Assembly (NCBI GenBank): GCA_964369365.1
Contig: CAYJES010000007.1
Location: 799 to 64,798, forward strand
Source of the DNA: an uncultured Lactobacillales bacterium
GTDB taxonomy: Bacteria; Pseudomonadota; Alphaproteobacteria; CAYJES01
Length of the DNA stretch: 64,000 nt
Direction: 5' to 3'
Shown here in pieces: positions 4,965-64,000 of this stretch (the stretch's first letter is position 1; every line of letters begins with the position of its first letter). Under the pieces are notes generated by a model. It made no database searches. It saw only the letters and a program-made list of their open reading frames with translations, and was not told where the DNA came from. The position numbers and the translations under genes were made by a program.

Positions 4965-5095
4965 AATGACACCTTTTTGGTATTGTTAATATAAAATTAA
5001 CACTATACTAAATTTTTAATTTTGACAATTGAAAAGTTTATAAAATAACTGTATGCTGATGAATATTTATATATAACTATTAGAGGATTATAATA

Positions 5096-6205: not shown

Positions 6206-7321
6206 ATGACTAAAGTAAAAAAGGTTATTAATTTACAAAGTGGTGTAGAGGCCACAAAACCGAGAGATGAAAGTTTTGATTCTATTCAAAATGGAGTTCC
6301 TATTTACGCTGATAATTTGCTGGAAGCTTATACAAGGCAAATTGAGCCAAAAGACTTTTTAAAGATATGTCAGAAAAAGTATGCTGGCGGTGATATGCAC
6401 AAAATGACAAGTATGGAAGGTTTGATGTATATTTCTTCGCTTTCTGAAAACAATAAGAGCGATGAAGCAAAACAAATGCTTGTAGATTATGTAAAAGTTT
6501 ATGGAACTAAAGACATATTTAGATTCCCAAGAACTGTTGATATTGCAACAGAAATAAAAATTTCAGATAAAAATATTGAAAAGGCAAAAGTTGTTTATGC
6601 TCATCTTCAAAAAAATAGAGATGAAAAATTATTAGATAAAATGATAGAGGGTAAATCAGTTGCTATTGTTGGTAGTGCTCCTTTTGAAAAAGGAAAAGGC
6701 AATGGTCCAACAATAGATTCTTATGACATTTCAATCAGATTTAATAATTATGTTTTAAATGATGAACATAAAATTGACTATGGATCTAAAACGGATATTT
6801 TTGCAAGAAACACAATAAATGATGATGTAAAAGATAGGCCAAATGATAATTATGATTTGACCATTTTACAAGGTGATTTTAAGCGTGGACCGTTAATGTT
6901 TGAAGTAAAAGATGGTAAACAGATAGAGCATTTGGATTCTTGGCATAGAGATATTTTGGCAGGCAAAAACTATTATTCAATTGCCCCAGAAACTACTAAA
7001 AGTTTGAAGCAAGCATCAGGAATTTACCATTCTACTGCGGGTCTTGCTGTATTTTGGGATATTTTAAGATCTAAAAAAGGCCAAACAAATGATATAGCAG
7101 TTTATGGTCTAGGTCTAAGTAAAGAAGCTTCTGATAAATTTGCGGATCACTATTACGAAACAAGAAGCGCTGAAGATAGAGCAAAATATTCAAAAGGCCA
7201 TGATTTTGGTAAAGAAGCAGGGTTTATAGGTATGGTTATTGAAGATGCTGAAAAAGTGAAAAAGTACTTTAATCAAATAACTTCACCATTGGCAGTTTCT
7301 ATAGTAAAAGAAGGAAGATAA
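6206..7321 (+). CDS. Putative glycosyltransferase with a Cst-II/GT42-like (sialyltransferase-fold) core. Short paralog of the protein at 54900..56936.
   Basis: VAIVGSAPFEKGKGNG...IDSYDISIRFNNY resembles the Cst-II VIIAGNGPS...DVFRCNQFY nucleotide-sugar-binding N-terminus. A later HSTAGLAVFWDIL...VYGLGLS segment resembles Cst-II TSGVYMCAVAIALGYKEIYLSGIDF. The first roughly 120 aa (YTRQIEPKDFLKICQKKYAG...MYISSL) are shared with the paralog. Confidence 0.35.
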   Translation: MTKVKKVINLQSGVEATKPRDESFDSIQNGVPIYADNLLEAYTRQIEPKDFLKICQKKYAGGDMHKMTSMEGLMYISSLSENNKSDEAKQMLVDYVKVYGTKDIFRFPRTVDIATEIKISDKNIEKAKVVYAHLQKNRDEKLLDKMIEGKSVAIVGSAPFEKGKGNGPTIDSYDISIRFNNYVLNDEHKIDYGSKTDIFARNTINDDVKDRPNDNYDLTILQGDFKRGPLMFEVKDGKQIEHLDSWHRDILAGKNYYSIAPETTKSLKQASGIYHSTAGLAVFWDILRSKKGQTNDIAVYGLGLSKEASDKFADHYYETRSAEDRAKYSKGHDFGKEAGFIGMVIEDAEKVKKYFNQITSPLAVSIVKEGR

Positions 7322-7798: not shown

Positions 7799-8185
7799 TT
7801 ACTTATCTTTTTTGCTAAGTTCTTTTTTGATTTCACCTAGACGCTCATAAATTCCAAACCAAACCATCAAAAGTTCGCAAGATATGCGTAAGGCAAGTAA
7901 TGCAAGTGGAATGTATAATAAAGTCATTAAGAAGTTACCGATACTACTGGCTGTTAAAAGCCAAATTAATGAGTATGCAAGTAATACAAATAAACCAATC
8001 CAATAAGCTGCTTTTATAGCGATTAATGCATAAGTTTTTTCAAAAGTTAGAAATTGGAAATAATCATATTTTTTAATTTTATCATCAAAAGATTTAACTT
8101 TTTCTGTGATTCCATCCCAATTGATAGCTTTGCGCGCAGATTGTTTTTTTTCTTTTTTTTCTTCTTTTTTTTCATTTTCGCTCAT
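7799..8185 (-). CDS. Small membrane protein with a Lys/Glu-rich N-terminus (hypothetical)
   Basis: 128 aa. Two predicted TM helices. The N-terminus is encoded by three T8 homopolymer tracts at 8144-8172. Confidence 0.4.
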   Translation of the reverse strand: MSENEKKEEKKEKKQSARKAINWDGITEKVKSFDDKIKKYDYFQFLTFEKTYALIAIKAAYWIGLFVLLAYSLIWLLTASSIGNFLMTLLYIPLALLALRISCELLMVWFGIYERLGEIKKELSKKDK

Positions 8186-8292: not shown

Positions 8293-9762
8293 ATGACAGA
8301 ACAACATTCTGACCAATATTTGGCGAGGCTGGAAAAATTGAAATCGTTTGAAGAAATGGGCATAAACCCATATCCAAACATTTTTAAACCAGATGATAAT
8401 GCAGGCGAATTACAAGATAAATATAAAGATCTAGCAAATGAAGAAAAAACTTCTGATACTGTATTGATAGCGGGCAGAATTAAGTCTATTCGTAATTCTG
8501 GGATGTTTATTGATTTGCATGATAGCACTGGGAAAATCCAAGTATATAGTCACGAAAATAATTTGTCAGAAGATGAGCTTAAAAAGTTGAAACTACTTGA
8601 TTTGGGCGATATGATTGGTGTTAAAGGTGTGGTCAGAAGAACAAAAAGAGGCGAGCTTACCGTTGATAGTGCCCAAATTACAATCCTTGCAAAAACATTA
8701 TTGCCTTTGCCTGAAAAATTCCATGGTTTGACTGATGTTGAAACTAGATACCGTCAACGTTATTTGGATATGATAACCAATGACGAATCCAAAACAGTAC
8801 TGAGAAAACGTTTTGAATTAATTGGTCATATCAGAAGATTTATGGAAGATAAAAAGTTTTTAGAAGTGGAAACTCCTATGTTGCACCCGATTTTAGGGGG
8901 TGCTAATGCTAAGCCATTTATAACTCATCACAACAGTTTGGATATGGATTTATATTTAAGGATTGCGCCTGAATTATACCTTAAAAGATTAATAATTGGT
9001 GGCTTTGACAGAGTTTTTGAAATAGGAAGAACTTTTAGAAATGAAGGCATTTCAGTTCGTCATAATCCTGAATTTACTATGATGGAGTTGTATCAAGCTT
9101 ATGCTGATTATAACGATATGATGGAACTTGCTGAAACTCTTATCAAATCTATTATTGAAAAAAGTATTGGCGGATTGATGTTGGAAATTGATGATAAAAC
9201 GATTGATTTTGCAAAACCATTTACTAAAATTAAAATGCTTGATGCTGTGAAAGATGCTACTGGGGTTGACTTTATGGCTATTGAAAACGCTGAGGAAGCA
9301 AGAGCAAAAGCAAAAGAATTAAAAGTAGATGTGAAAGATACTGCATCTTGGGGTGATACTGTGCTTGCAGTGTTTGAAGACAGGATTGAACCTACTTTGA
9401 TAAACCCTACTATCGTTATGGATTATCCAATTGAAACATCTCCACTGACTAAGACACATCGTGATAACCCTAGATTATGCGAAAGATTTGAGTTGTTCAT
9501 AAATACTTGGGAAGTTGCAAATGCTTATTCAGAGCTTACTAACCCACTTACCCAAAAGGAAAGATTCGAAGATCAAGTAAAACAAAGAGAAGCAGGTGAT
9601 GGCGAAGCACAAATGATGGATGAAGATTATGTGACGGCGCTTAATTACGGGCTTATCCCTACTGGTGGTATGGGGTTTGGTGTGGATAGGTTGATGATGC
9701 TTGCAACTAGTTCGCTTTCAATTCGTGACGTAATTGCATTCCCTACATTAAGACATAAGTAA
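8293..9762 (+). CDS. lysS: Lysyl-tRNA synthetase, class II
   Basis: 489 aa. An OB-fold anticodon-binding N-domain plus a class II core ([17 protein letters not shown] motifs). Confidence 0.95.
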
Positions 9763-16064: not shown

Positions 16065-18491
16065 TTATGCCATTTCTAAATATTTTTGAACAAAGTTTTC
16101 TTCGCCAAATTCACGCATTAATTGTTCCGCTAATACAACGTGTTTACGACCAGAAGAATAAAGTTTTAGGTAAGGTCCAAGAGGTCCTAAGTTTACGTCC
16201 AAAATGACAGATTCACCGATAGCTGGACGAGATACCAAAATACCATATTTTAAATCTTTAAACTCTCTTCCGAAAATGAAATCTTTTTCACGTGGAGTTA
16301 GTCGCCAATTTTCATAATCTTCTTCCATACCTTGTGGATTTTTAAAGAAGATAACCGTTTGACACTGTCCCCTGATAACTTCGCCAAGTCCAAGGCTATC
16401 CACGATATTAGGTTGTTGGAAAGCGCATAGGAATGCTTGACGTTTTTTACGACCTTCTTGCAAACCTACGATAAAACTGTCCCTAAACATTGGGTGTTTT
16501 AACATCGGCGCAGTTTCATCAATCATAACCAAAGATGGATCACCAGTTGAGCTTGCTACTGTATTAATACGGTGCATAACATAGCTGATAACCGCTGGGG
16601 CTAGTAGTTCGTCTTCAAAAATATGGGTAAAGTCAAATGCCATAAATCTAGTGGTCATATCTAAATCATCGTTTGGTGAGTTAAATATACGTCCATATTG
16701 CTGGTCGTTAATCCAACGATAAAGCTCTCTTCTCATATGGCCTGTTGGTGAAAAACAGCTTTTATAAAGGTTTTTAAGAGTACGTTGGTTGAAATCTAAA
16801 TAATCAAAAGAGGTGGTAACCGCTCTTGCAATTTCACGTTCCGAATAAGAATCTGTTGCCATGGTAATAGATTTAATCCAACGACGTAAGAATGCCCTGT
16901 TTTCAGGAGTGTCTTGTGCTGATAATGGGTTAATAGCAGTTGCGTTTTTATCGCCATCAAAGTTTACATAAGCTCCTCCAATAGCTTTTGTAAAAATTTC
17001 AACACCTTTATGACGGTCAAAAAAGTATACACGGAGGTTGCTATGACGCATAGCTTGACCTGCTAAGAATGCTAGTAGTGTTGTTTTACCTTGACCAGTT
17101 GGACCAATAATCACAGCGTGGGCTACTGCTGCATCTTCTGTTGATACGTGGAATTGCCATTTATATGCTGTACCTGTTACAGTTCTGAATACTGCAATTG
17201 CCCCATCACCCCAGTCACTTTTTGCAAGTCCTTCTGTAGATGTTTCAAGACATAGCGCACAGCCAATCGCTCTTGATAAATATAAATAAGTTCTTGGATA
17301 TATTTCATAAGTTGGGAATTGGGCGAAGAATGAAGCTTCTGCTACCCAGCCATCTCTTACAGGAGTTACGCCATGAAGCCTAGTTAATCTTTCTACCTCA
17401 ATCTGTCCGAATTTTAACTCTTCCATACTTTCAGCAAAAACAAATAGTGTCATAGCGTACTCATGAATGGTTTGAGAACTTTCAGAAGCGCTATCCATTG
17501 CTTCTAGTACCATTGTAAATTGATCTGTGTTACCTTCTGCCACCGAAGTTGTAAATGATAATTGTCTTCTTCTGATTAAATCTGCTGCAGCCTTTGCTTT
17601 ATTTTTTGGTTTTATATTATGAAGCAGTGTTAATTCTACGTCTAATGATAGTAAATCAGCCACCATTTGTTCGTCAATATAATCCCCGCAAGAACGCATT
17701 CCCATAACAATGCCTAGTTTTTCATTCTCACCTGCAATAAATTTAATTAATCCCTTATCACCAGTAAAATGAATATAATCAGCAGTTAAAAGTCCGTTTA
17801 ATTCTGTTGTTTCTAAGTCGCCAACTTTAGGAGATGGTCTAGATAACGGACTTGCGATATTTGCAAATAAATGAAAAGGTGAAAGTTCTGGCGGAGAATT
17901 TTCATCCTCATACATTGGAGTCATGACAAATTCATCTAACATAGATTCAATAGCTATTATGCATTGTTCCAAATCTTTTTCTGCATTATCCCTATCAATA
18001 ACAGATAGAATAAGATGATGCTCATTTGTGTAAATCCTGTCTAAATTATCCTGCCATCTTTGGGCAACTTTTGATAGTAACTTATTTTCGAAACCAACAA
18101 GATTATCAACAGGAACACGTTTTCTTAAAGTTATAAATCTAGCAGTTATATTGCTTTCTGAAAGATTATCAACTACTCTCTTTTTTAAATCTAGTAAAAT
18201 TTCACGTTCTTTTGGGGCAAGTAGGGTCATGTCCTTGCCTTTTAGCTTGAACACCCTTACTATCGTATTGTCTTGGCATTCAATTGTCATTCCATCTTCT
18301 CTTAATCGTCTGAATGGAAGGAAGTCTGCTACCCTTGTTTCTCTTGGGCGGGGCAAGAAAAATGCACCTATTTTTGAAACTATTACTGCAATAAAAGCAG
18401 CTGCAGCACAAAACCCGATTATACCGATTGTTGTTTCAACTGTCGATATACTCTCAACAAATACAACATTTGCAAGTAAGCTAGGATCCAA
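16065..18491 (-). CDS. virB4: Type IV secretion system ATPase VirB4/TrbE family
   Basis: 808 aa. N-terminal TM segment. Walker A (GPTGQGKTT). Conserved VirB4 C-terminal ATPase domain. It overlaps the upstream virB3 stop. Confidence 0.85.
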   Translation of the reverse strand: MDPSLLANVVFVESISTVETTIGIIGFCAAAAFIAVIVSKIGAFFLPRPRETRVADFLPFRRLREDGMTIECQDNTIVRVFKLKGKDMTLLAPKEREILLDLKKRVVDNLSESNITARFITLRKRVPVDNLVGFENKLLSKVAQRWQDNLDRIYTNEHHLILSVIDRDNAEKDLEQCIIAIESMLDEFVMTPMYEDENSPPELSPFHLFANIASPLSRPSPKVGDLETTELNGLLTADYIHFTGDKGLIKFIAGENEKLGIVMGMRSCGDYIDEQMVADLLSLDVELTLLHNIKPKNKAKAAADLIRRRQLSFTTSVAEGNTDQFTMVLEAMDSASESSQTIHEYAMTLFVFAESMEELKFGQIEVERLTRLHGVTPVRDGWVAEASFFAQFPTYEIYPRTYLYLSRAIGCALCLETSTEGLAKSDWGDGAIAVFRTVTGTAYKWQFHVSTEDAAVAHAVIIGPTGQGKTTLLAFLAGQAMRHSNLRVYFFDRHKGVEIFTKAIGGAYVNFDGDKNATAINPLSAQDTPENRAFLRRWIKSITMATDSYSEREIARAVTTSFDYLDFNQRTLKNLYKSCFSPTGHMRRELYRWINDQQYGRIFNSPNDDLDMTTRFMAFDFTHIFEDELLAPAVISYVMHRINTVASSTGDPSLVMIDETAPMLKHPMFRDSFIVGLQEGRKKRQAFLCAFQQPNIVDSLGLGEVIRGQCQTVIFFKNPQGMEEDYENWRLTPREKDFIFGREFKDLKYGILVSRPAIGESVILDVNLGPLGPYLKLYSSGRKHVVLAEQLMREFGEENFVQKYLEMA

Positions 18492-19876: not shown

Positions 19877-21133
19877 ATGAAAACTTTTTCTGCTTTTGAA
19901 AGAATGGTTGCATGGCGATATTTGCGTTCTAAACGTAAAGAAGGTTTTGTTTCTGTTATTACTATTTTTTCTTTGTTGGGGATTTGCCTTGGCGTTGCTA
20001 CACTTATTATTGTTATGAGTGTTATGAATGGATTTCGTCATGAACTTTTAAATAGAATTCTTGGGCTTAATGGACATATGGGGGTTTACGCTTCGTACGG
20101 TACTTTATTGGGTGATTATGATTTAATCGGGCAAAAAATAAAAACTGCTAAAAATGTTGTAGGTGTAATCCCAATAGCAGAAGGTCAAGTTATGGTTACC
20201 TCTCCTAGAGGTGGGGTGCAAGGCGGTATCTTAAGAGGTATGAGAGCAAATGATTTGGCTTTTCATAGGGTTATTATGCAATCGCTAAAGGGAATGAATT
20301 TGGATGATTTTGATCGTCCGGATACGATTGTTCTTGGCTATAAATTGGCGCAAAAGCTTGGGGCGCAAATAGGAGATGAAATAACTTTGGTTTCTCCACA
20401 AGGCAAAGCAACCGCTTTTGGTACAGTACCAAGAATGAAATCGTTTGAAATTGTTGGTACGTTTAATGTGGGTATGCAAGAATATGATGCCAGTTTTATG
20501 TATATGAATTTAATAAATGCGCAAAATTATCTGGGTTTTGGCGATACAGTTTCTAATTTAGAAATTTTTATAGATAATCCGGACGATGTCGAATCGGTAC
20601 GTAAGGTTCTTGCTCCTATTGTCGGGGCTGGTGGATCGGTTGTTGATTGGCAAAAATCAAATTCTTCATTCTTTAATGCAATTCAAGTAGAAAGGAATGT
20701 TATGTTCCTTATCCTTACTTTGATCATTATTGTCGCGGCATTTAATATTATTTCAAGTCTTATAATGCTTGTAAAAGATAAAGGTAGAGACATCGGAATA
20801 CTGAGGACTATGGGTGCTTCTCGTGGTATGATAATGAGGATATTTTTCTTGTCTGGGTCTTTGGTTGGTGTCGTTGGCACTGTAATTGGGGTTATACTAG
20901 GGCTTACTTTTTGTGCGAATATCGAATCGATACGTCAGTTTTTGGAGTCCTTAACTGGTACAGAATTATTCTCGGCAGAAATATATTTCCTATCTCAGCT
21001 TCCTGCTAGGGTGGAATTTGGCGAAGTGGTTAATGTTATTTTAATGGCTCTTGGTCTTTCTTTTGGGGCTACTATTTACCCTGCGTTGAGGGCTGCAAAA
21101 ATGGATCCAGTGGAGGCGTTACGATATGAATAA
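19877..21133 (+). CDS. lolE: Lipoprotein-releasing system permease LolC/E (FtsX family)
   Basis: 418 aa with 4 TM segments, a periplasmic MacB-like domain and a C-terminal FtsX domain. It overlaps lolD by 8 nt. Confidence 0.85.
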   Translation: MKTFSAFERMVAWRYLRSKRKEGFVSVITIFSLLGICLGVATLIIVMSVMNGFRHELLNRILGLNGHMGVYASYGTLLGDYDLIGQKIKTAKNVVGVIPIAEGQVMVTSPRGGVQGGILRGMRANDLAFHRVIMQSLKGMNLDDFDRPDTIVLGYKLAQKLGAQIGDEITLVSPQGKATAFGTVPRMKSFEIVGTFNVGMQEYDASFMYMNLINAQNYLGFGDTVSNLEIFIDNPDDVESVRKVLAPIVGAGGSVVDWQKSNSSFFNAIQVERNVMFLILTLIIIVAAFNIISSLIMLVKDKGRDIGILRTMGASRGMIMRIFFLSGSLVGVVGTVIGVILGLTFCANIESIRQFLESLTGTELFSAEIYFLSQLPARVEFGEVVNVILMALGLSFGATIYPALRAAKMDPVEALRYE

Positions 21134-47596: not shown

Positions 47597-49246
47597 CTAT
47601 TTGTCAATCTTGCTATCAAAAAATTTGTTAAGAGTAAATACTCGATTAAAACCAGCAGTTTTGTTTTTTGAATCTTTTACTGCTTTATCTTCTCTTATTG
47701 TTCGTTCTGACTTTTCGATAGATAAAGAAGTTTTCATTTCTGATCTAATAGTGCTATCATTTTCTTTAGGTGTAACAAATTCATAGTTTTTATTCATTAA
47801 TGATTTAATTGTTGCCATTAATTGTTTTGGGTAATCAACAGGATATTTTATGAAATCTTTGAACGGAATCATATTAACAAGTTTTGATACGTTAATGTTT
47901 TTTAATTTTCCTTTGATAGATTCTGGCATTTCTTTTATCAATTCCGGAACTTTCTTTGTGCTATCTTTTTGGGCTTCAAAATCTTGAATCCCATCGATTA
48001 ATAATAATCCTTTTAAAATAGCCATCCTGTCTAAATCCCCAGTTTCTATAATTCCTTTGAATGCATTATGCAAATCAGGGTGGCTGTCATCTCTTGCATG
48101 GAATGTAGACGCAAAAGCGATATCATATAACTCTTTATCTGTTTTGTTGCAAATGCCAGCTTTATTCATTTCTTCAATTGCACCTTTGAAATCTTCCATT
48201 TGGGTAAGGCCTTTTAAAGAATATAAATGCCCTTGTTTTGCAGCATCAACCAACGCCATAGCATGCCCATGTGCAATAGCCATAATATTCAATTGAAAAT
48301 CATTTATAAAGTTTTCGTCCTCGTTTAATGAAGATGTTTTTTGGTTAAATAAAAAGTTTTTAGCATGGATTTGAGAAATTACAGTAAAATCTACGTATCT
48401 TTGATCATCAACATAAGTCATGCCGTAGTCTGTTTTTGTTGCATCAACATTAATAACAGCATCATTTGTAGGGACATATGCACTAAGATAATTGCTATCT
48501 GTTTCTTCTTCTATAATATTTATAACAGGCACGCCATGTTTATATAAATTACGAAGCGCTTCATCATGTTCAGGATTGTTTCTTATTCTGTTTAAAGATT
48601 GTTCAAATAATCCTTTGTCACCACCCATAAAATCTTTAATAATGTCGTTTTTAAGCCCAGTAATAGCAGGAATAGGCATGTCTGGGGAAAGGGTTTCAAT
48701 AGCTACTTTTGCTGGTAATTCAATGTTTATGTTGTCGTGAAGCGCAGAAAAACTTCCTGAAAGAGCCCCTACAAGTAAAAAACCACCAACCAAACCAAGC
48801 ATTTTTTTCTTATGCTTTTGCATAAAGCTTTCATCTAATCCTTTTGCTTTTGCTCCAGATGTTAAAACTTTGCCTTTTAATGTGGTTGCAAGAACATCTA
48901 TTACATTTTCTTTATCTGTAGATTGTGGTTCTATGCCTTTATTTGTATATTTGCCTTTATATAAATCAATAATGTTAATAGCATCAGGGTGTTTTGATGG
49001 TGATAAGAATTTTTTATCACCTTTTACTCTGTCATGATTTAGAATTTTAGATAATGCTTCTGATAAAGCTGGGGTTGTTTTTTTATAGTTTAAAGCAAAT
49101 ATAACCAAAGCAGATTTGTGTCTTTTTGATGCATAAATGTTTACAGATGCATCATCAATTCCCTTTAATACTCCGTCTAAATTACCATTTTCGCAAGCTG
49201 TAAAAAAGTTTTCAGTTGTGTGATCTGAATAGTTGTGAGCGCTCAT
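47597..49246 (-). CDS. Large orphan protein with a central TM helix (hypothetical; candidate secreted or effector-like)
   Basis: Start placed at MSAHNYS (49246), which has an aggaga RBS. The ORF track extends to 49294. Possible single ankyrin-like N-terminal unit. TM helix MLGLVGGFLLVGALSGSFSAL. Lys-rich C-terminus. Confidence 0.45.
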   Translation of the reverse strand: MSAHNYSDHTTENFFTACENGNLDGVLKGIDDASVNIYASKRHKSALVIFALNYKKTTPALSEALSKILNHDRVKGDKKFLSPSKHPDAINIIDLYKGKYTNKGIEPQSTDKENVIDVLATTLKGKVLTSGAKAKGLDESFMQKHKKKMLGLVGGFLLVGALSGSFSALHDNINIELPAKVAIETLSPDMPIPAITGLKNDIIKDFMGGDKGLFEQSLNRIRNNPEHDEALRNLYKHGVPVINIIEEETDSNYLSAYVPTNDAVINVDATKTDYGMTYVDDQRYVDFTVISQIHAKNFLFNQKTSSLNEDENFINDFQLNIMAIAHGHAMALVDAAKQGHLYSLKGLTQMEDFKGAIEEMNKAGICNKTDKELYDIAFASTFHARDDSHPDLHNAFKGIIETGDLDRMAILKGLLLIDGIQDFEAQKDSTKKVPELIKEMPESIKGKLKNINVSKLVNMIPFKDFIKYPVDYPKQLMATIKSLMNKNYEFVTPKENDSTIRSEMKTSLSIEKSERTIREDKAVKDSKNKTAGFNRVFTLNKFFDSKIDK

Positions 49247-49328
49247 AAAAATATCTCCTGATATATATAATTTTTTATAGTTGTATTCTAACAAAAATTA
49301 TCACTTTTGTCAACTTATTTGTTGTTTT

Positions 49329-54899: not shown

Positions 54900-56936
54900 A
54901 TGGTAAAAATTTTTACAAGTGGTGAAACAATATCAAATTCTTCTCATGAACAATATGAAAGTATTCAATGTGGGATTTTTATAGGTGCTGAAAGTTTATT
55001 ACAAGCATATATAAGGCAAATTGATCCAAAAGAGTTTCTTAAAATATGTGAAAGAAATTTTGCAGGCAAATCAATAAATGAAATCCCAAGCATGGATGCT
55101 TTGATGTATATTTCGTCTCTTATTGACAATAAAAAGGATTTTTTGGCAGAAAAAATGCTGTCTGAATATATTAAAACTTATGATACAAGGGATATTTTCA
55201 GATTTTATAAAGTAACAAAACTTGCAAGCCAAAAAGGTATTTTAGATGATAATATCGAAAAAGCTTTATATGTTTATGGCGAACTTAAAAATGCAAGAAA
55301 TGAAGGCCTGCTTGCAAAAATGCTTGAAGGCAAAAAAATAGCAATAGTAGGTAGCGCCCCATCTGAAATTGGGAAAGGTCATGGTGAAGAAATAGATAGT
55401 TATGACCATTGTATTAGGTTTAATAATTTTAAAATTTTACCCGAGCACGAGGTCGATTATGGTTCGAAAATTGACATATGGGCCAGAAATACGGTAAATG
55501 AAGATGTTGTTGATAGAAAAGATGAAGACTTTTCAATAATAATATTACAATCTGATTTTGAATTTGGGCCTGTAATGTATGACCATATGGATATTATGTA
55601 TCGTGATTTAAAGCAAGGTAAAAAATACTATTCTATTGAAATGGCGACAATAAAAGAATTAAAAATAGCTTCTAGAGTATATCCTATTTCTGCTGGATTT
55701 ACTGTGTTTGGAGAGATATTAAGAATTAAAAAAGGTGATACTTCATCATTTGGATTGTTTGGTTTTGCTCTTGATGATGAGGCAGCAAGTAAATTTGGAG
55801 ACCATTATTTTGAAGTAAGAAATGAAGATGAAATAAAAAATGATTTAATAGGATGTTTTTTCACTGAAGAAGCTGGATTTATGGCTTACGCACTTAAAAA
55901 ATCACAAGAATTAAGTCGTATATGGGAAAGAAGAAATGCTGTTATTGTAAATAATCCAAAACAAAAAGGAGCTGGAGATGGGGTTATAGCAATATGTGAA
56001 GCGTTAAGACGACATATCCCAGATTTAGAATATAACTTTGTTGAGACAGCTGATGAAGTAACAGAAAAGCCATATATAGTTTGGAGTGTTGGTCCTGATA
56101 CTACTGATATTGCAATGGAAATCATAAAAAAACACAATCCTGATTTTGTGTTTGGTATGAAAGACCCATATGATGATGCTGATGTTGAAGAATATGTATT
56201 ATATAGTAAAATTATAGATACAATGGGAACTTTACAAACAGCTAAAGTAAATGTAGCACGTCCTGATTTAGTTTACTTTCCAGATTTTCCTCCATTTTCT
56301 ATGACTAAATATGGGCTTGGGCAATTTAAGTATGCTCCTGTCTTAGATATTTTTAATCCTGATTTATTGATTTCAATTGGTGGAGCTGATCCTTATACAA
56401 ACCGTGATGTAGTAGAAGGAGATATTGATAATTTATTAAAATTAGCTCAAAATTTTAAAGAAAATATCGGTGGAAAAGTTGCATTTTTAACTAGTAATAG
56501 AACAAATGATAAGGTGATAGAATATCTTAAATCTAAAAAAGATAAACAAGACGCTTTGTCTGATTTTAAAAGTGCAACGCTATATTATGATGATAAAGAA
56601 TTTAAAGATTTAAAAAGTGTTTATCAAGCATTTATAATAAACAGTAATTATTTTGTTCAAACAGATGATAGTTTATCAATGATGGCAGAATTAACGGTGA
56701 GAGAGGGTAAATTAGTAATATATCAAACATTAGGAACTGACAGCTCAACTCAACGTAGAATTAATGTTGCAAATTCTGTTGTTGAATCTGGAAATGCTAT
56801 AATTGTAGATGAAAATATTATAAATTCAGATGATAAAAATGAAATATTCAAAAAAGTAGAAAATTCAAAATCGTTAGAAGGAGTGATAGATAGAAAAATA
56901 GCAAGGATGTTGTACGATATAACAAAAATTAAATAA
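54900..56936 (+). CDS. Two-domain putative glycosyltransferase: Cst-II/GT42-like N-terminal module (paralog of 6206..7321) fused to an ELM1/DUF1022-like GT-B-like C-terminal module
   Basis: The N-terminal 370 aa align with the 6206 ORF (KKIAIVGSAPSEIGKGHGEEIDSYDHCIRFNNF...VDYGSKIDIWARNT). The C-terminal part (ISIGGADPYTNRD...KVAFLTSNRTNDK...QTDDSLSMMAELTVREGKLVIYQ) resembles ELM1-family proteins. Confidence 0.35.
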   Translation: MVKIFTSGETISNSSHEQYESIQCGIFIGAESLLQAYIRQIDPKEFLKICERNFAGKSINEIPSMDALMYISSLIDNKKDFLAEKMLSEYIKTYDTRDIFRFYKVTKLASQKGILDDNIEKALYVYGELKNARNEGLLAKMLEGKKIAIVGSAPSEIGKGHGEEIDSYDHCIRFNNFKILPEHEVDYGSKIDIWARNTVNEDVVDRKDEDFSIIILQSDFEFGPVMYDHMDIMYRDLKQGKKYYSIEMATIKELKIASRVYPISAGFTVFGEILRIKKGDTSSFGLFGFALDDEAASKFGDHYFEVRNEDEIKNDLIGCFFTEEAGFMAYALKKSQELSRIWERRNAVIVNNPKQKGAGDGVIAICEALRRHIPDLEYNFVETADEVTEKPYIVWSVGPDTTDIAMEIIKKHNPDFVFGMKDPYDDADVEEYVLYSKIIDTMGTLQTAKVNVARPDLVYFPDFPPFSMTKYGLGQFKYAPVLDIFNPDLLISIGGADPYTNRDVVEGDIDNLLKLAQNFKENIGGKVAFLTSNRTNDKVIEYLKSKKDKQDALSDFKSATLYYDDKEFKDLKSVYQAFIINSNYFVQTDDSLSMMAELTVREGKLVIYQTLGTDSSTQRRINVANSVVESGNAIIVDENIINSDDKNEIFKKVENSKSLEGVIDRKIARMLYDITKIK

Positions 56937-60298: not shown

Positions 60299-60982
60299 AT
60301 GAAAAAAGGAATGAAACAGAATTTATTTTATATAAAAACCAGCATGTTTGCTATGGTTTCTGCTGTTCTTGTACTTGTACTCCTCGCTGCGTAGGCAGCA
60401 TATATAATATACCCCAAAACTATATAACTAATGATGAAAAACCCTAATAATAAATTAAGGAATAACGAAATGAATATAAATATAAAAGAAATGACAAATT
60501 TAATAGTAGACGCAGCAAAAAAAGGCGCAATAGTTGAACCAATCGCACATATAACGAAAGAAATTGCAAAAAAAATAACTAAACGTGCCACTAAACAAAT
60601 TTCTGAGATACAACACAATTGCCCAGAACGTAAAGCATTAATATTTTCTAATTATAAAAAAATAATTCAAGGATTGGCATATGAAGAATCAAGTAATAGG
60701 GCTGTTCATGAATTGCCAAGAAAAGATAAATTAAGGATTGTTGCACATGAATATATTGCAGCAGCTGTGAAAGTGGTTGATGAAAATGATTATAAATTCA
60801 AAAAAGTCAACGGTGAAAAGGTATTGATATTAAAACCTAATAAGGAGCAATATAAAGGGGCTATTAACTTTAATGAATTTTCACAAACAGAAATAAGAGA
60901 AGAAATCCAAAAATTTACATCTCCTGCTTCTAATAGAGTTTACTGGGTTGTGATGAGCGGACTTTTTGGTCATCAAAGATAG
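60299..60982 (+). pseudogene. Probable nonsense-disrupted secreted-protein gene. A signal-peptide mini-ORF lies in frame with the 183-aa ORF at 60431..60982.
   Basis: From the ATG at 60299 the frame reads MKKGMKQNLFYIKTSMFAMVSAVLVLVLLAA, then TAG, then AAYIIYPKTI, then TAA, then L-MMKNPNN..., which is the ORF-track 183-aa protein. All are in the same frame. The 183-aa body could also be expressed on its own from the ATG at 60431. Confidence 0.35.
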
Positions 60983-61130
60983 TATTTTAGTGTTGTTGCT
61001 TGGCTCACATCTACATAGCTGGTAACTAATTAATAGTTTAATTCTAAACCCCTAGGTTGTGAGCTTATGCATATCCTTGTTTTTTTATTTTCATTAATTA
61101 CTTTTAAACTGAAAGTATTGCATTATATGG

Positions 61131-61175
61131 TATAATATAATATAATATAATATAATATAATATAATATAATATAA
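61131..61175. repeat. Perfect (TATAA)x9 pentanucleotide microsatellite in the promoter region of the Pmp-like gene
   Basis: tataa repeated 9 times, then tatat. A TTGCAT -35-like hexamer lies at 61118-61123. Each unit junction creates a TATAAT -10 hexamer. Confidence 0.9.
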
Positions 61176-61214
61176 TATATCTATATATGCATAAAAAATT
61201 GAGGGAGAACATCT

Positions 61215-64000
61215 ATGACCACATTAAATAAAAACTTCAAATTAAAGCAAACAAAAAAATGTTTGCTAAGGGTGTTATCCGTGTTTGTGGCGCTTTTTAG
61301 CACTATATTTTTGACTTCAATCCCGGCCTATTCATTTGAAATTGACTCAGATGAAATTGTCTATGGTGGTGCTATTATGACGGTAAACTCTAATTTAAAT
61401 ATCATTGGTGGTGTCGATAAAGCCACTACTCTAACCCTTTCAAACAATACTTCTGACACATCTGGAGGAGCTATGTATGTTCGTAATGATTTTTATAAAT
61501 ATGATCCTATGCCAATAGCAACGGTTAATATTAATGGATATTTTAAATTAATGAGCAATATTTCCTATTCTTTCGGCGGAGGGATGTATTTTTACTGTGG
61601 CAATTCTGCAGATGTAGTAACTATGAAAGTTAATATAGCAAATGATAGTAATATAATAGGATTAAAAAACTATGGTGCTCGAAGTTATTGGTATGGTGGA
61701 GGCGCGGTTATGGCTTTTGCAGGATTAATAGATGTTGATATTGATGGGGTTATGACATTTACAGAAAATCGCACCAATGGATCAGGAGGAGCGCTGCTTT
61801 TCTATTTTGATAGGGGGTATGGTAAACAAATTATTGATTTTAAAAGCACAAGTAATATAACTGGCGTTGGTAATTATAGTAGCCGTGGCGGTGGAACGAT
61901 GGTATTTCATGTAACAAGAGGTGATAGAGAGCAAGAAGTTAATTTTAAAGGAATGATGAAATATGAAAATAACTCTTCTAGCGAGAAAGGTAGTGCGTTT
62001 TACTTTTGGATTGACCAAGAAAGATCAAAACCAGTAAAGCAAACTGTTGATTTTGGCGGCACTATGGAATTTATTAATAATGGCAGAGGAATTAATAGAT
62101 ACGGGGATGATATAATAACCAAAAGAGGAGGAGCAATTTTTATGTGGGCTAGAGGAGATGATAGGATGGCGGAAACGAATGCTAGTTTCACTGGCAACAT
62201 GAAATTTGAAGGAAACGTTGCTGAATATGCTGGAGGGGCGATATATGTTGGGGTTATGTATTCACCTAAATCGGTGAATGTTGATTTTGGAGGTACTATG
62301 GAATTTATTAATAATGAAGTGCTACTATCCAGCTCTAGCCTTCATTCTGATAAATACGGAGGTGGTGCAATTGCTATGAGAAGAGAAGGAGGCAGTGGAT
62401 CTGTAAATGCTAATTTTAGCGGGAGTATGGTGCTAACTGGCAATAAATCAGTACTTGTAAGGACGGATGCTATTTATGATAGATATGACAATGTTGGAGG
62501 TGGGGCTCTATTTTTTGATAAATGTAGTGATATTAATTTTATTGGCACTATGTATTTGGGTGTAAATGCATTAGGAAAAACAGTTGACGACGAGGGAAAT
62601 TCACTTGGTAATATTGATCCGCATAGAGGAGGGGCAATGTATTTTAGTTATTGTAGTGAGATTAATTTTGAGGGAGAACTGAAGTTAATTGGTAATAAAA
62701 CAACACTAATAAGTGATGGTTATGGCGGAGGAGCTATATTTTTTAATGCATGTAGTGAGATTAATTTTAAAGGAGTTATGGAGTTAACTGAAAATACTGC
62801 TAGCTATGATGGAGGAGCAATGTATTTTGATAATTGCTCTAATGTTGATTTCGGAGTTGATAGCGATTTAACGTTCATAAAAAACAAAGCTCATAAACTG
62901 TCATTTTTGTCAAACTACGGTAATGGCGGAGCTATCTTTTTTAGATCTTCTTCGGGCACTCGAACAATAAATTTTAATGGAAAAATGGAGTTGATTGAAA
63001 ATAAAACGTATAGTGACGGTGGTGCGATGTCATTCGAAAATACTAATTCAGCTAAAATAAATGTTTATTTTAATGTAGGTAGTGATACTGATGTAATCCG
63101 TAATGATGGAAATTATGGTGCAGGACTTAATTTTACAGAATGTAGCGATGTTAGGTTTGCCGGTGATCTTTTGTTGGATGGAAACACTTCTGAAAGTAGT
63201 TCATCTATGGAGGTTTCAAGTTTTATAGGAGGGGGTGCGATGTTTAATAATTGCGCTAACGTGTATTTTGATGAGGGTGACTCATCGACAATAACAACTG
63301 TTATAAATAACACTGCGAGTTCAGGTGGCGGGTTAAATTTTACAAGCACATCAAATATTTTCATTAATGGAAAAATGTTAGTTGATAACAATGAGGCGAC
63401 TAAGAAGGATAGTGGTGGTGGAGGATTTGCATTTTGGTCTGCGGAGAATGTGCAAATAAATGGAGATATTAAAGTAACAAATAATTTTGTTAATGGTGCT
63501 GGGGCAGGATTACTGTTTAATGAATGTTCAGTTGTAACAATTGCGGGCAAATTGGATATTTCTAATAATAACGTAGATATTGCAGGTAGTGGCGGTGCAG
63601 GAATTACTATGAAAGATAATGGTACTGTAAATATATATGGCATAATAAATATAAATGACAACCATGCGGACAATCCTACTAATATTACTGGTGGATATGG
63701 CGGTGGATTATCTGTTATAAATTCAGAAAATTTAGCTTTTGGTGGGTATTTTAATTCTGGGGTAGCTACAAAGGTTGATGGATCATCGATTTCTGTAAAT
63801 AATAACACTGCTGGTGTTCATGGTGCCGGTCTTTATATTCAAGAAGTTCACAATGTTCACTTTTTAGGTGGAAGTCGTAGTGGAGAAATCGGAATAAATG
63901 GAGGATTAACTGTGTCTGGAAACGAGGCGCAAGGAACCGGAGGTGGAATAACAATATTAAATAATAATGGAATTTCTGGTGAGTATAATATTTATTTCGC
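61215..64000 (+). CDS. Pmp-like (polymorphic membrane protein repeat) autotransporter passenger. The 5' part is shown here. It continues beyond the window.
   Basis: RBS gagggag 7 nt upstream of the ATG at 61215. Signal peptide (LLRVLSVFVALFSTIFLTSIPAYSF). More than 20 repeats of roughly 25-30 aa carry GGA[IMVL]xF motifs (GGAMYF, GGGAIFF, GGALLF) and FxxN motifs (FKGVMELTEN, FEGELKLIGN). The frame is open to the last base. Confidence 0.75.
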   Translation, partial: MTTLNKNFKLKQTKKCLLRVLSVFVALFSTIFLTSIPAYSFEIDSDEIVYGGAIMTVNSNLNIIGGVDKATTLTLSNNTSDTSGGAMYVRNDFYKYDPMPIATVNINGYFKLMSNISYSFGGGMYFYCGNSADVVTMKVNIANDSNIIGLKNYGARSYWYGGGAVMAFAGLIDVDIDGVMTFTENRTNGSGGALLFYFDRGYGKQIIDFKSTSNITGVGNYSSRGGGTMVFHVTRGDREQEVNFKGMMKYENNSSSEKGSAFYFWIDQERSKPVKQTVDFGGTMEFINNGRGINRYGDDIITKRGGAIFMWARGDDRMAETNASFTGNMKFEGNVAEYAGGAIYVGVMYSPKSVNVDFGGTMEFINNEVLLSSSSLHSDKYGGGAIAMRREGGSGSVNANFSGSMVLTGNKSVLVRTDAIYDRYDNVGGGALFFDKCSDINFIGTMYLGVNALGKTVDDEGNSLGNIDPHRGGAMYFSYCSEINFEGELKLIGNKTTLISDGYGGGAIFFNACSEINFKGVMELTENTASYDGGAMYFDNCSNVDFGVDSDLTFIKNKAHKLSFLSNYGNGGAIFFRSSSGTRTINFNGKMELIENKTYSDGGAMSFENTNSAKINVYFNVGSDTDVIRNDGNYGAGLNFTECSDVRFAGDLLLDGNTSESSSSMEVSSFIGGGAMFNNCANVYFDEGDSSTITTVINNTASSGGGLNFTSTSNIFINGKMLVDNNEATKKDSGGGGFAFWSAENVQINGDIKVTNNFVNGAGAGLLFNECSVVTIAGKLDISNNNVDIAGSGGAGITMKDNGTVNIYGIININDNHADNPTNITGGYGGGLSVINSENLAFGGYFNSGVATKVDGSSISVNNNTAGVHGAGLYIQEVHNVHFLGGSRSGEIGINGGLTVSGNEAQGTGGGITILNNNGISGEYNIYF

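Follow-up and report, generated by a model that had tools for sequence, protein, structure and literature searches.

We describe a perfect (TATAA)9.8 simple sequence repeat (SSR) at 61131-61179 (+ strand) of a 64-kb stretch of DNA from an uncultured alphaproteobacterium (the whole of which we call the window), and show that it sits in a 232-bp intergenic region directly upstream of a gene for a Pmp-repeat protein. Because the repeat itself constitutes the -10 hexamers of the candidate promoters, and the -35-like boxes lie 5' of it, the -35/-10 spacing is insensitive to the number of repeat units. Our preferred reading, advanced tentatively, is that the tract is a slippage-prone SSR in the promoter and 5' leader of a secreted, beta-helix-like Pmp-repeat protein gene, and that it may grade expression in the manner of hmw1A and uspA2. 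The tract as a mutable expression dial is credible but unproven.

Analysis of the window by TRF, an SSR census, hexamer mapping and simulation each single out this tract. TRF reports a single array of period 5, with 9.8 copies and 100% matches, whose score of 98 is the best in the window. A first-pass annotation of this DNA had described a perfect 45-bp pentanucleotide repeat; the perfection and the unit stand, while the length by TRF is 49 bp, that is, (TATAA)9 followed by TATA. Its observation that every unit junction reads TATAAT is borne out by nine overlapping consensus -10 hexamers, which start at 61131+5k for k=0 to 8, and it was also right that an SSR of this length is rare. In 100 Markov-3 simulations the longest perfect period-5 run averaged 14.5 bp and reached at most 18 bp, and the runner-up perfect SSR in the window measures 12 bp, leaving the tract as the sole such SSR in 64 kb. 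The pure A/T run at this site, at 50 bp, is double the window's second longest (25 bp). No homopolymer within the 64 kb exceeds 8 nt; A/T homopolymers of lengths 5 to 9 number 452, 222, 84, 23 and 0, respectively, a fall-off that points to a natural cap, not to an artefact of truncation. No stable DNA hairpin is formed by the tract, its predicted hairpin being less stable than those of shuffled sequences. Taken together, a perfect SSR far beyond chance and background, lying in the promoter or leader of a gene whose product is predicted to be at the surface, supports the view that the tract is non-random and intrinsically slippage-prone and that its site is a classic contingency-locus context. 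Since all 9.8 units are pure, slippage turnover is probably ongoing.

The downstream gene begins at an ATG at position 61215, 36 bp past the end of the tract, and the window includes its 5' part (61215-64000, + strand); the product is a protein of 1053 aa or more (P0004) with a signal-peptide-like N-terminus. The gene extends past the window's end and probably past that of the contig; the 1053 aa available end without a beta-barrel domain, the gene probably being cut by the contig end, and the autotransporter named in the first-pass annotation is to that extent a putative one. Chlam_PMP repeats are present in the ORF (PF02415, 33.4 bits against a cut-off of 20.6), TIGR01376 scores 18.9 against a cut-off of 15, and GGA[ILVM] occurs 14 times, spaced 30-45 aa apart, where 0.3 occurrences are expected. 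Multiple GGA(I/L/V) motifs together with a Pfam Chlam_PMP match above threshold mark P0004 as a Pmp-repeat protein, in agreement with the earlier description of the product as Pmp-like. An excess of FxxN motifs paired with GGAI, a further mark of the family, was not found in P0004, FxxN being no more frequent than in shuffles (7 vs 7.3), nor was homology of P0004 to the chlamydial Pmps detected beyond the repeat. P0004 has only 27 weak, repeat-level matches among 1.84 billion representatives (best E 7e-18, 34% identity), and none of the seven weak relatives scanned carries an autotransporter barrel. An AF2 model of P0004 is all-beta at low confidence (pLDDT 53), and a Foldseek search with that model returned nothing significant, the top match being Fap2. 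Within the window, P0004 is the only Pmp-repeat protein and the only product recognisable as a large secreted repeat protein; the window, about 87% of which is coding, also encodes MCP, VirB4, PPK1 and PPK2, a content that does not bear out the reduced genome presumed in the first-pass annotation.

No other strain or close relative was found in the collections. At 90% identity each of the proteins checked forms a singleton cluster, exact-product look-ups with the 183-aa protein encoded upstream of the tract, CorA, P0001 and P0004 retrieved no record, and homologue searches with the 183-aa and Pmp-like proteins retrieved only the queries themselves. LAP homologues led to three contigs from the nearest relatives (65-71% LAP identity), all of which keep cmk-pepA-corA. 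Conservation lends no support to our reading, because none of these three contigs has an SSR or a homologue of either the 183-aa gene or the Pmp-like gene. Two scans of species-representative genomes, with the Pmp N-terminus and with a clade CorA alignment, gave no match, the source genome likewise going unmatched, and a search of JGI metagenomes with the 183-aa protein was also negative. No second copy of the locus appeared in the genome and metagenome scans. TGN(TATAA)8 matched at least 120 contigs elsewhere, but these are uninformative, because most are low-coding contigs of eukaryote type in which (TATGA)n and (TATAA)n form compound microsatellites, and among the few that are gene-dense no comparable bacterial promoter context is seen.

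The promoter scan places the best consensus promoter of the region at the edge of the tract. This candidate (P1) has a perfect extended -10, TGgTATAAT (61128-61136, + strand), composed of the left flank and the first repeat unit, and is scored by the scan at 10/12 with the TG present; a -35-like CTGAAA (61109-61114, + strand; 4/6 match) precedes it at a 16-bp spacer. An alternative candidate (P2) would pair the TTGCAT box (61118-61123, + strand) with the third TATAAT (61141-61146) across a spacer of 17 bp. This is the -35-like box to which the first-pass annotation had drawn attention; it is indeed present at that position, but only three of its six bases agree with TTGACA. A Shine-Dalgarno-like GAGGGAG (61201-61207, + strand) lies 7 nt ahead of the ATG. 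Promoter-like matches in the region do not exceed those in shuffles (10 vs 7.4), the E. coli sigma70 consensus being applied here to an alphaproteobacterium. Across the window the extended -10 TGNTATAAT occurs 11 times where 7.5 are expected, a count that shows no enrichment and does not indicate a genome-wide promoter type, and a one-mismatch CtrA-box match near the -35 belongs to a motif whose count is below chance (52 vs 71 expected).

The tract contains all nine TATAAT hexamers but neither of the -35-like boxes, both of which are situated 5' of it. When we varied the tract in silico from 0 to 15 units, CTGAAA-16-TGgTATAAT stayed constant at n>=1 and TTGCAT-17-TATAAT did so at n>=3; each unit shifted only the ATG, by 5 bp relative to this fixed promoter geometry. 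Gain or loss of units alters nothing but the count of -10 hexamers and the distance from left flank to right flank, that is, from promoter to ribosome binding site (RBS). The central proposal of the first-pass annotation, that slippage would change the -35/-10 spacing, is contradicted by this constancy for both P1 and P2, and the tract does not occupy the position between -35 and -10 that characterizes promoter-spacer switches of the hifA/B, porA and vlp type. If the extended -10 or TTGCAT-17-TATAAT is taken as the predicted promoter, motifs that are not statistically enriched, the SSR instead falls between promoter and start codon, and the fallback offered by the same annotation, a change in the transcript leader, is viable.

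The 232-bp intergenic region is bounded on its 5' side by a co-directional orphan gene of 183 aa (60431-60982, + strand), for which no homologue was found. No canonical terminator follows that gene, and the hairpin there is not significant. The leader RNA folds weakly (z = -1.8), and no known RNA element was found at the locus. Modelled accessibility of the RBS is 0.43 for n=2-16 and is unaffected by unit number, so that one of the ways in which leader length could act on expression lacks support.

According to our preferred reading, the promoter would be fixed at the 5' edge of the tract by the extended -10 and the CTGAAA upstream of it, and transcription would start at about position 61143, within the repeat, and the remaining units would become part of the transcript as a (UAUAA)n leader some 72 nt long. 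Unit number would then set the count of consensus -10 hexamers downstream of the start site, and these hexamers could hold sigma70, leading to promoter-proximal pausing, or could compete for RNA polymerase. It would also set the distance and helical phase between elements of the left flank and the RBS, ATG and palindrome of the right flank. The predicted outcome is a graded, heritable and reversible variation in expression without an on/off spacer switch. The identity of the promoter, the start site, hypermutability in this organism and any effect on expression are each steps that we infer. A more specific form of this model, which we regard as improbable, holds that the tract is a mutable -10 array and a tunable sigma70 trap, such that slippage would step the expression of the surface protein through repeat-encoded pausing. 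RNA polymerase starting at the fixed extended -10 would encounter a variable number of TATAAT hexamers, each of which could re-engage sigma70 and make the complex pause or abort, or could draw in competing polymerases. To our knowledge, such a repeat-encoded pausing rheostat is undescribed for any contingency locus.

One possible alternative, which we consider rather unlikely but take seriously, is that the tract is a neutral by-product, in which a TATAAT and an adjacent ATAAT seeded slippage and any variation in length would leave expression essentially unchanged. Expansion would be tolerated because both edges of the tract keep a promoter-competent geometry at any length; the constancy of the 5' edge over unit number fits this explanation, as would a similar constancy presumed at the 3' edge, and so do the independence of RBS accessibility from n and the lack of a conserved counterpart in relatives. 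Furthermore, a single such locus is visible, and consequently no genome-wide pattern of SSRs at surface genes can be shown. Against neutrality, SSRs and long homopolymers are strongly depleted in the rest of the window, suggesting that such tracts are normally purged, and the lone exception falls exactly at the promoter of the sole Pmp-repeat secreted-protein gene. It is also unlikely that 5-50 bp of added sigma-binding hexamers between promoter and RBS would be fully silent (PMC7876045, PMC2424069).

Two palindromes that flank the tract raise the possibility of a phasing switch, to which we give little credence. A 10-mer on the left, TTATGCATAT (61065-61074), contains the core TATGCATA and is a candidate operator half, and its perfect inverted partner ATATGCATAA (61185-61194) lies between the repeat and the RBS; the cores, at 61066-73 and 61186-93, are exactly 120 bp apart across the tract. 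A dimeric regulator bound to this pair could loop the promoter, and as a 5-bp unit is about half a helical turn, alleles would alternate between loop-competent and loop-incompetent forms. In support of this, the spacing of 11.43 helical turns would become 10.95 or 11.90 turns upon a change of one unit, and a precedent exists in nadA, where NadR operators flank a TAAA repeat (PMC3899988). Two of the four TATGCATA copies in the 64 kb flank the repeat, and the probability that two of four random sites fall within 150 bp is 0.028, though the observation was made post hoc. The motif is moreover short and AT-rich, its total in the window is not above chance (4 vs 2.5 expected), the other two copies lie outside obvious promoter positions, and the regulator is a hypothetical one.

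We likewise doubt that the tract is a static structural element, an easily melted or flexible 50-bp block of pure A/T, rich in TpA, whose length is effectively fixed and whose repetitiveness is incidental. Such a block might serve as a supercoiling-sensitive promoter, as an UP-like element for a downstream start or as a nucleation site for an AT-binding silencer. That the window's longest pure A/T run, by twofold, lies directly at the promoter is consistent with this idea, and the last TATAAT (61171-76) could serve as a -10 with AT-rich DNA upstream. However, a functional AT block needs no perfect 5-bp periodicity, the purity across 9.8 units points to slippage dynamics over compositional selection, and the hexamers at the 3' edge have neither a -35 nor a TG partner.

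Very improbable is an on/off switch in which unit number would set the spacing between TTGCAT and its -10, as happens in hifA/hifB or porA: there is good documentation of spacer-SSR switches (PMC3899988), and TTGCAT does lie 17 bp upstream of a TATAAT, but the repeat supplies the -10 and not the spacer, the hexamers of P2 and P1 persist at n>=3 and n>=1, and the box is a poor match to consensus. Only a functional -10 located 3' of the tract could rescue this model, and no hexamer with both A2 and T6 stands there at a usable distance from the RBS. Equally hard to credit is an artefact, either a mis-joined eukaryotic microsatellite or a repeat collapsed or expanded through assembly or host contamination, for although (TATAA)n of at least eight units is common in low-coding, eukaryote-like metagenome contigs, often at contig ends, the present tract is internal to its contig, is flanked by bacterial genes at distances of no more than 150 bp and of 36 bp, is followed by an RBS and signal peptide in register, and shows continuous GC content across the junction.

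SSR contingency behaviour is best known in Neisseria, Haemophilus, Moraxella, Campylobacter, Helicobacter and the mycoplasmas, and we know of no documented SSR-based variation in this uncultured alphaproteobacterial lineage. If the tract varies and tunes expression, such behaviour would extend to a deep-branching branch of the Alphaproteobacteria, and the orphan Pmp-repeat protein would be marked as an antigen that faces the host or the environment and is subject to fluctuating selection. Our analysis also carries a general caution, that an SSR supplying -10 hexamers cannot act via promoter spacing; any effect must therefore arise from -10 copy number or inter-flank distance.

Several known systems share part of this arrangement. 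Like the (TA)n of hifA/hifB, the poly-G of N. meningitidis porA and the poly-A of M. hyorhinis vlp, the tract is an SSR in a sigma70-type promoter, here a candidate one, whose gene is predicted to specify a surface structure, and like that of hif it is composed of A and T only (PMC3899988; PMC2651432). In those systems, however, the SSR is the -35/-10 spacer and unit number sets the spacing, whereas here it is an array of -10 hexamers and the spacing is constant. The (TAAA)n repeat of N. meningitidis nadA is also AT-rich and heteropolymeric, and it changes the number of, or the spacing between, flanking regulator sites, including those for IHF and NadR (PMC3899988). The TATGCATA pair would permit the same logic, although the nadA repeat lies upstream of the -35 and its regulators are known, whereas the flanking sites described here are candidates. 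Genes of the chlamydial pmpG family also combine Pmp repeats with slippage-prone tracts (PMC4488443), but those are homopolymeric poly-G tracts within the coding sequence that act on/off by frameshift, in contrast to a pentanucleotide upstream of the gene in an alphaproteobacterium.

With regard to pausing, sigma70-dependent pauses are caused by -10-like sequences within the initially transcribed region (PMC7876045), and with P1 as the promoter as many as seven such hexamers would lie downstream of the start site on the non-template strand, as at lambda PR' and at E. coli pause sites genome-wide. The known cases involve one -10-like element, not an array, and are uncoupled from a mutable repeat. 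A pentanucleotide tract, (GACGA)4, shows a high mutation rate (PMC2651432). The surface-protein genes uspA2 and uspA1 of M. catarrhalis resemble the present locus in carrying repeats within the 5' UTR or a short way ahead of the start codon. As summarised in PMC4679880, citing Attia & Hansen 2006 and Lafontaine 2001, an (AGAT)n repeat in the 5' UTR of uspA2 and a poly-G tract that precedes the uspA1 start codon by 30 nt tune expression through copy number (6-23). The uspA repeats are a tetranucleotide and a homopolymer clear of core promoter elements, and the start sites were mapped, whereas here the start site is predicted. In H. influenzae hmw1A and hmw2A, 7-bp units lie upstream of the genes in numbers of 9-28, varying between and within strains (PMC2424069; PMC2651432), and more units give less transcript in a graded, not on/off, fashion (PMC2424069). 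HMW is a two-partner-secretion protein of a gammaproteobacterium, its 7-bp unit is not a -10 hexamer, and both polymorphism and the effect on expression have been demonstrated for it. What the two loci would share is a heteropolymeric SSR that separates the promoter region, here a predicted one, from the start codon of a large secreted protein, which in the case of hmw is a beta-helical adhesin.

The 232-bp intergenic region between the gene at 60431-60982 and the open reading frame (ORF) starting at 61215 holds a pentanucleotide repeat, (TATAA)9 plus TATA (61131-61179; 49 bp, 9.8 copies, 100% identity), with the top TRF score in the window. This confirms the perfect TATAA microsatellite that the first-pass annotation described before a Pmp-like gene, together with its TATAAT at every unit junction: nine consensus -10 hexamers start at 61131+5k. 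GAGGGAG (61201-61207) precedes the ATG at 61215. The tract exceeds chance expectation; the longest period-5 run in 100 Markov-order-3 simulations averaged 14.5 bp and never passed 18 bp, the second-longest perfect SSR within the 64 kb is 12 bp, and the pure A/T block at the tract (50 bp) is twice the next longest. At periods 1-4, SSRs in the window are shorter than in the simulations, suggesting selection against slippage-prone tracts in the lineage; the longest homopolymer is 8 nt versus ~13 simulated, and no G/C run is longer than 5. A/T homopolymers of length 5, 6, 7, 8 and 9 number 452, 222, 84, 23 and 0, a smooth, steepening fall-off that is not a truncation artefact. Slippage-prone tracts are thus avoided in this segment, the present one being the sole exception. 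Second in the window for repetitive low complexity is an imperfect T-rich tract at 8144-8179, in which three T8 runs have C or CTTC between them; a lysyl-tRNA-synthetase-like ORF (8293-9762) begins ~115 bp downstream.

The long ORF with its ATG at 61215 is co-directional with the gene directly upstream of the tract (60431-60982, plus strand), an orphan of 183 aa with no family match and no homologue in 5.8 billion proteins or the JGI metagenomes, and extends past the window end. On the source contig its product is P0004 (1053 aa), and the only family that P0004 matches is the Chlam_PMP repeat (PF02415 at 33 bits, cut-off 20.6; TIGR01376). GGA[ILVM] occurs 14 times, spaced 30-45 residues, where 0.3 are expected, and FxxN, the second Pmp hallmark, is not enriched in P0004 (7 vs 7.3). 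Judged by inspection only, the N-terminus, MTTLNKNFKLKQTKK-CLLRVLSVFVALFSTIFLTSIPAYS/FE, resembles a Sec signal peptide. No barrel or stop-proximal domain was found at the end of P0004, whose length places the contig end ~370 bp past the window, so that the Pmp-like gene appears to be truncated there. HMMER, run exhaustively over 1.84 billion representatives, gave only 27 weak, repeat-level matches (best E 7e-18, 34% identity). Of seven among the top matches that were scanned with Pfam, six carry Pmp repeats (three of them with Beta_helix as well) and the seventh matches nothing; an autotransporter barrel was found in none. A single-sequence AF2 model is all-beta with periodic short strands, at low confidence (pLDDT 53); Foldseek found nothing significant with it, and its non-significant list comprises mostly beta-helix passengers and tailspikes, with Fap2 on top.

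The window (32% GC, ~87% coding) encodes an MCP, VirB4, PPK1, PPK2, DnaE, RecG, Mfd, LigA, RecN, LpxC, BamD, a Tim44-like protein and DUF3576, and every protein tested from it is a singleton at 90% identity. Leucyl aminopeptidase has its nearest relatives (65-71% identity) in GCA_964368695.1, GCA_964370055.1 and GCA_028748545.1; the remaining matches are at ≤50% identity, and the named ones are all Alphaproteobacteria. The cmk-pepA-corA block is kept in 3/3 relatives (CorA 73-84% identical), and these three showed no SSR and, beyond corA, no homologue of the 183-aa or Pmp-like genes; further copies of the locus were found neither in species-representative genomes nor in the metagenome scan. 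A single A/T run longer than 8 nt occurs on the relatives' contigs (9 nt, in L003). Elsewhere in the window, a VirB4-family type IV secretion ATPase (16065-18491, minus strand) is an isolated T4SS component: it has a U32 peptidase and a Vut_1 transporter as neighbours, and no VirB3/VirB6-like genes next to it. The ORF at 6206-7321 (plus strand) matches glycosyltransferase family 29 (sialyltransferase-like), which is chiefly eukaryotic and viral, and could reflect host mimicry or horizontal acquisition. Two large ORFs, 54900-56936 (plus; 678 aa) and 47597-49294 (minus; 565 aa), have absent or sub-threshold family matches (ELM1-like, 25.6 bits; cut-off 27) and encode lineage-specific proteins. 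Exact CtrA-type boxes, TTAA-N7-TTAAC, lie at 4985-5001, 2138-2154, 776-791 and 21029-21044; the first, palindromic on both strands, is ~21 bp upstream of the start (4964, minus strand) of the gene for the methyl-accepting chemotaxis protein (MCP), as would fit CtrA regulation of chemotaxis genes in Alphaproteobacteria. One-mismatch matches to the motif show no enrichment in the window (52 vs 71 expected).

The best consensus promoter of the region pairs CTGAAA (61109-14) across 16 bp with TGgTATAAT (61128-36), a perfect extended -10 built from the left flank and the first unit. A second option pairs TTGCAT (61118-61123) across 17 bp with TATAAT (61141-46); TTGCAT, previously put forward as a -35-like box, is indeed present but matches TTGACA at only 3/6 positions. 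Scored against the E. coli consensus in what is an alphaproteobacterium, promoter-like matches in the region are not in excess of shuffles (10 vs 7.4), nor is TGNTATAAT enriched in the window (11 vs 7.5). When the region was rebuilt in silico with 0-15 units, the CTGAAA/TGgTATAAT pair was constant at n (unit number) ≥1 and the TTGCAT/TATAAT pair at n≥3, because the tract itself contains the -10 hexamers and the -35-like boxes precede it on the 5' side; for this reason, a promoter on the last TATAAT would be likewise invariant. The proposal of the first-pass annotation that unit gain or loss changes -35/-10 spacing is therefore geometrically impossible, and slippage can alter only how many -10 hexamers there are and how far apart, or in what helical phase, the elements of the two flanks lie. 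Its alternative, an altered transcript leader, survives; promoter-to-ATG distance shifts 5 bp per unit.

RNA structure is an unlikely link between n and expression, since the leader folds weakly and modelled SD/AUG accessibility is the same at n = 2-16. No stable DNA hairpin was found in the tract and no Rfam element at the locus. By analogy, the most plausible routes are sigma70 pausing and a graded repeat-number effect. Hexamers resembling a -10 in the initially transcribed region hold sigma70 and cause promoter-proximal pausing (PMC7876045), as up to seven TATAAT hexamers downstream of the start site might do here. Transcript level is graded with the number of 7-bp repeats at hmw1A/hmw2A (PMC2424069) and with that of the AGAT leader repeat of uspA2 (PMC4679880); n could act similarly at this tract.

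The tract is perfectly pure and stands alone in a background poor in SSRs, which favours active slippage over pure chance, and it is a textbook-looking candidate contingency locus. Our best explanation, a promoter/leader SSR tuning expression of the Pmp-repeat gene, is held tentatively. That the tract is a neutral by-product, we regard as somewhat less likely. A minor rival is an operator pair whose helical phase each unit would flip, a logic resembling that of nadA/NadR (PMC3899988). The candidate sites are perfect inverted 10-mers, TTATGCATAT and ATATGCATAA (61065-61074 and 61185-61194), with the tract between; their core palindrome, TATGCATA, has only 4 copies in 64 kb, two of which flank the tract exactly 120 bp apart (P ~0.03, post hoc), or 11.43 helical turns, against 10.95 with one unit fewer and 11.90 with one more. 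Host contamination is excluded by bacterial genes directly on both sides of the tract.

The motif is not unique, as at least 120 JGI metagenome contigs carry TGN(TATAA)8. In most of those listed, coding density is low and (TATGA)n/(TATAA)n arrays are compound, and contigs terminating at the tract are frequent, which points to eukaryote-type microsatellites; the few gene-dense ones listed show no parallel bacterial promoter context. A few sample series are rich in such long arrays (contigs L004-L123), which probably represent microsatellites of eukaryotic hosts that break assemblies. The metagenome occurrences are neutral as to function at the present locus.

The locus is probably a new case of a known kind, a promoter/leader SSR preceding the gene of a surface protein, with one unusual trait: each repeat unit doubles as a -10 hexamer.
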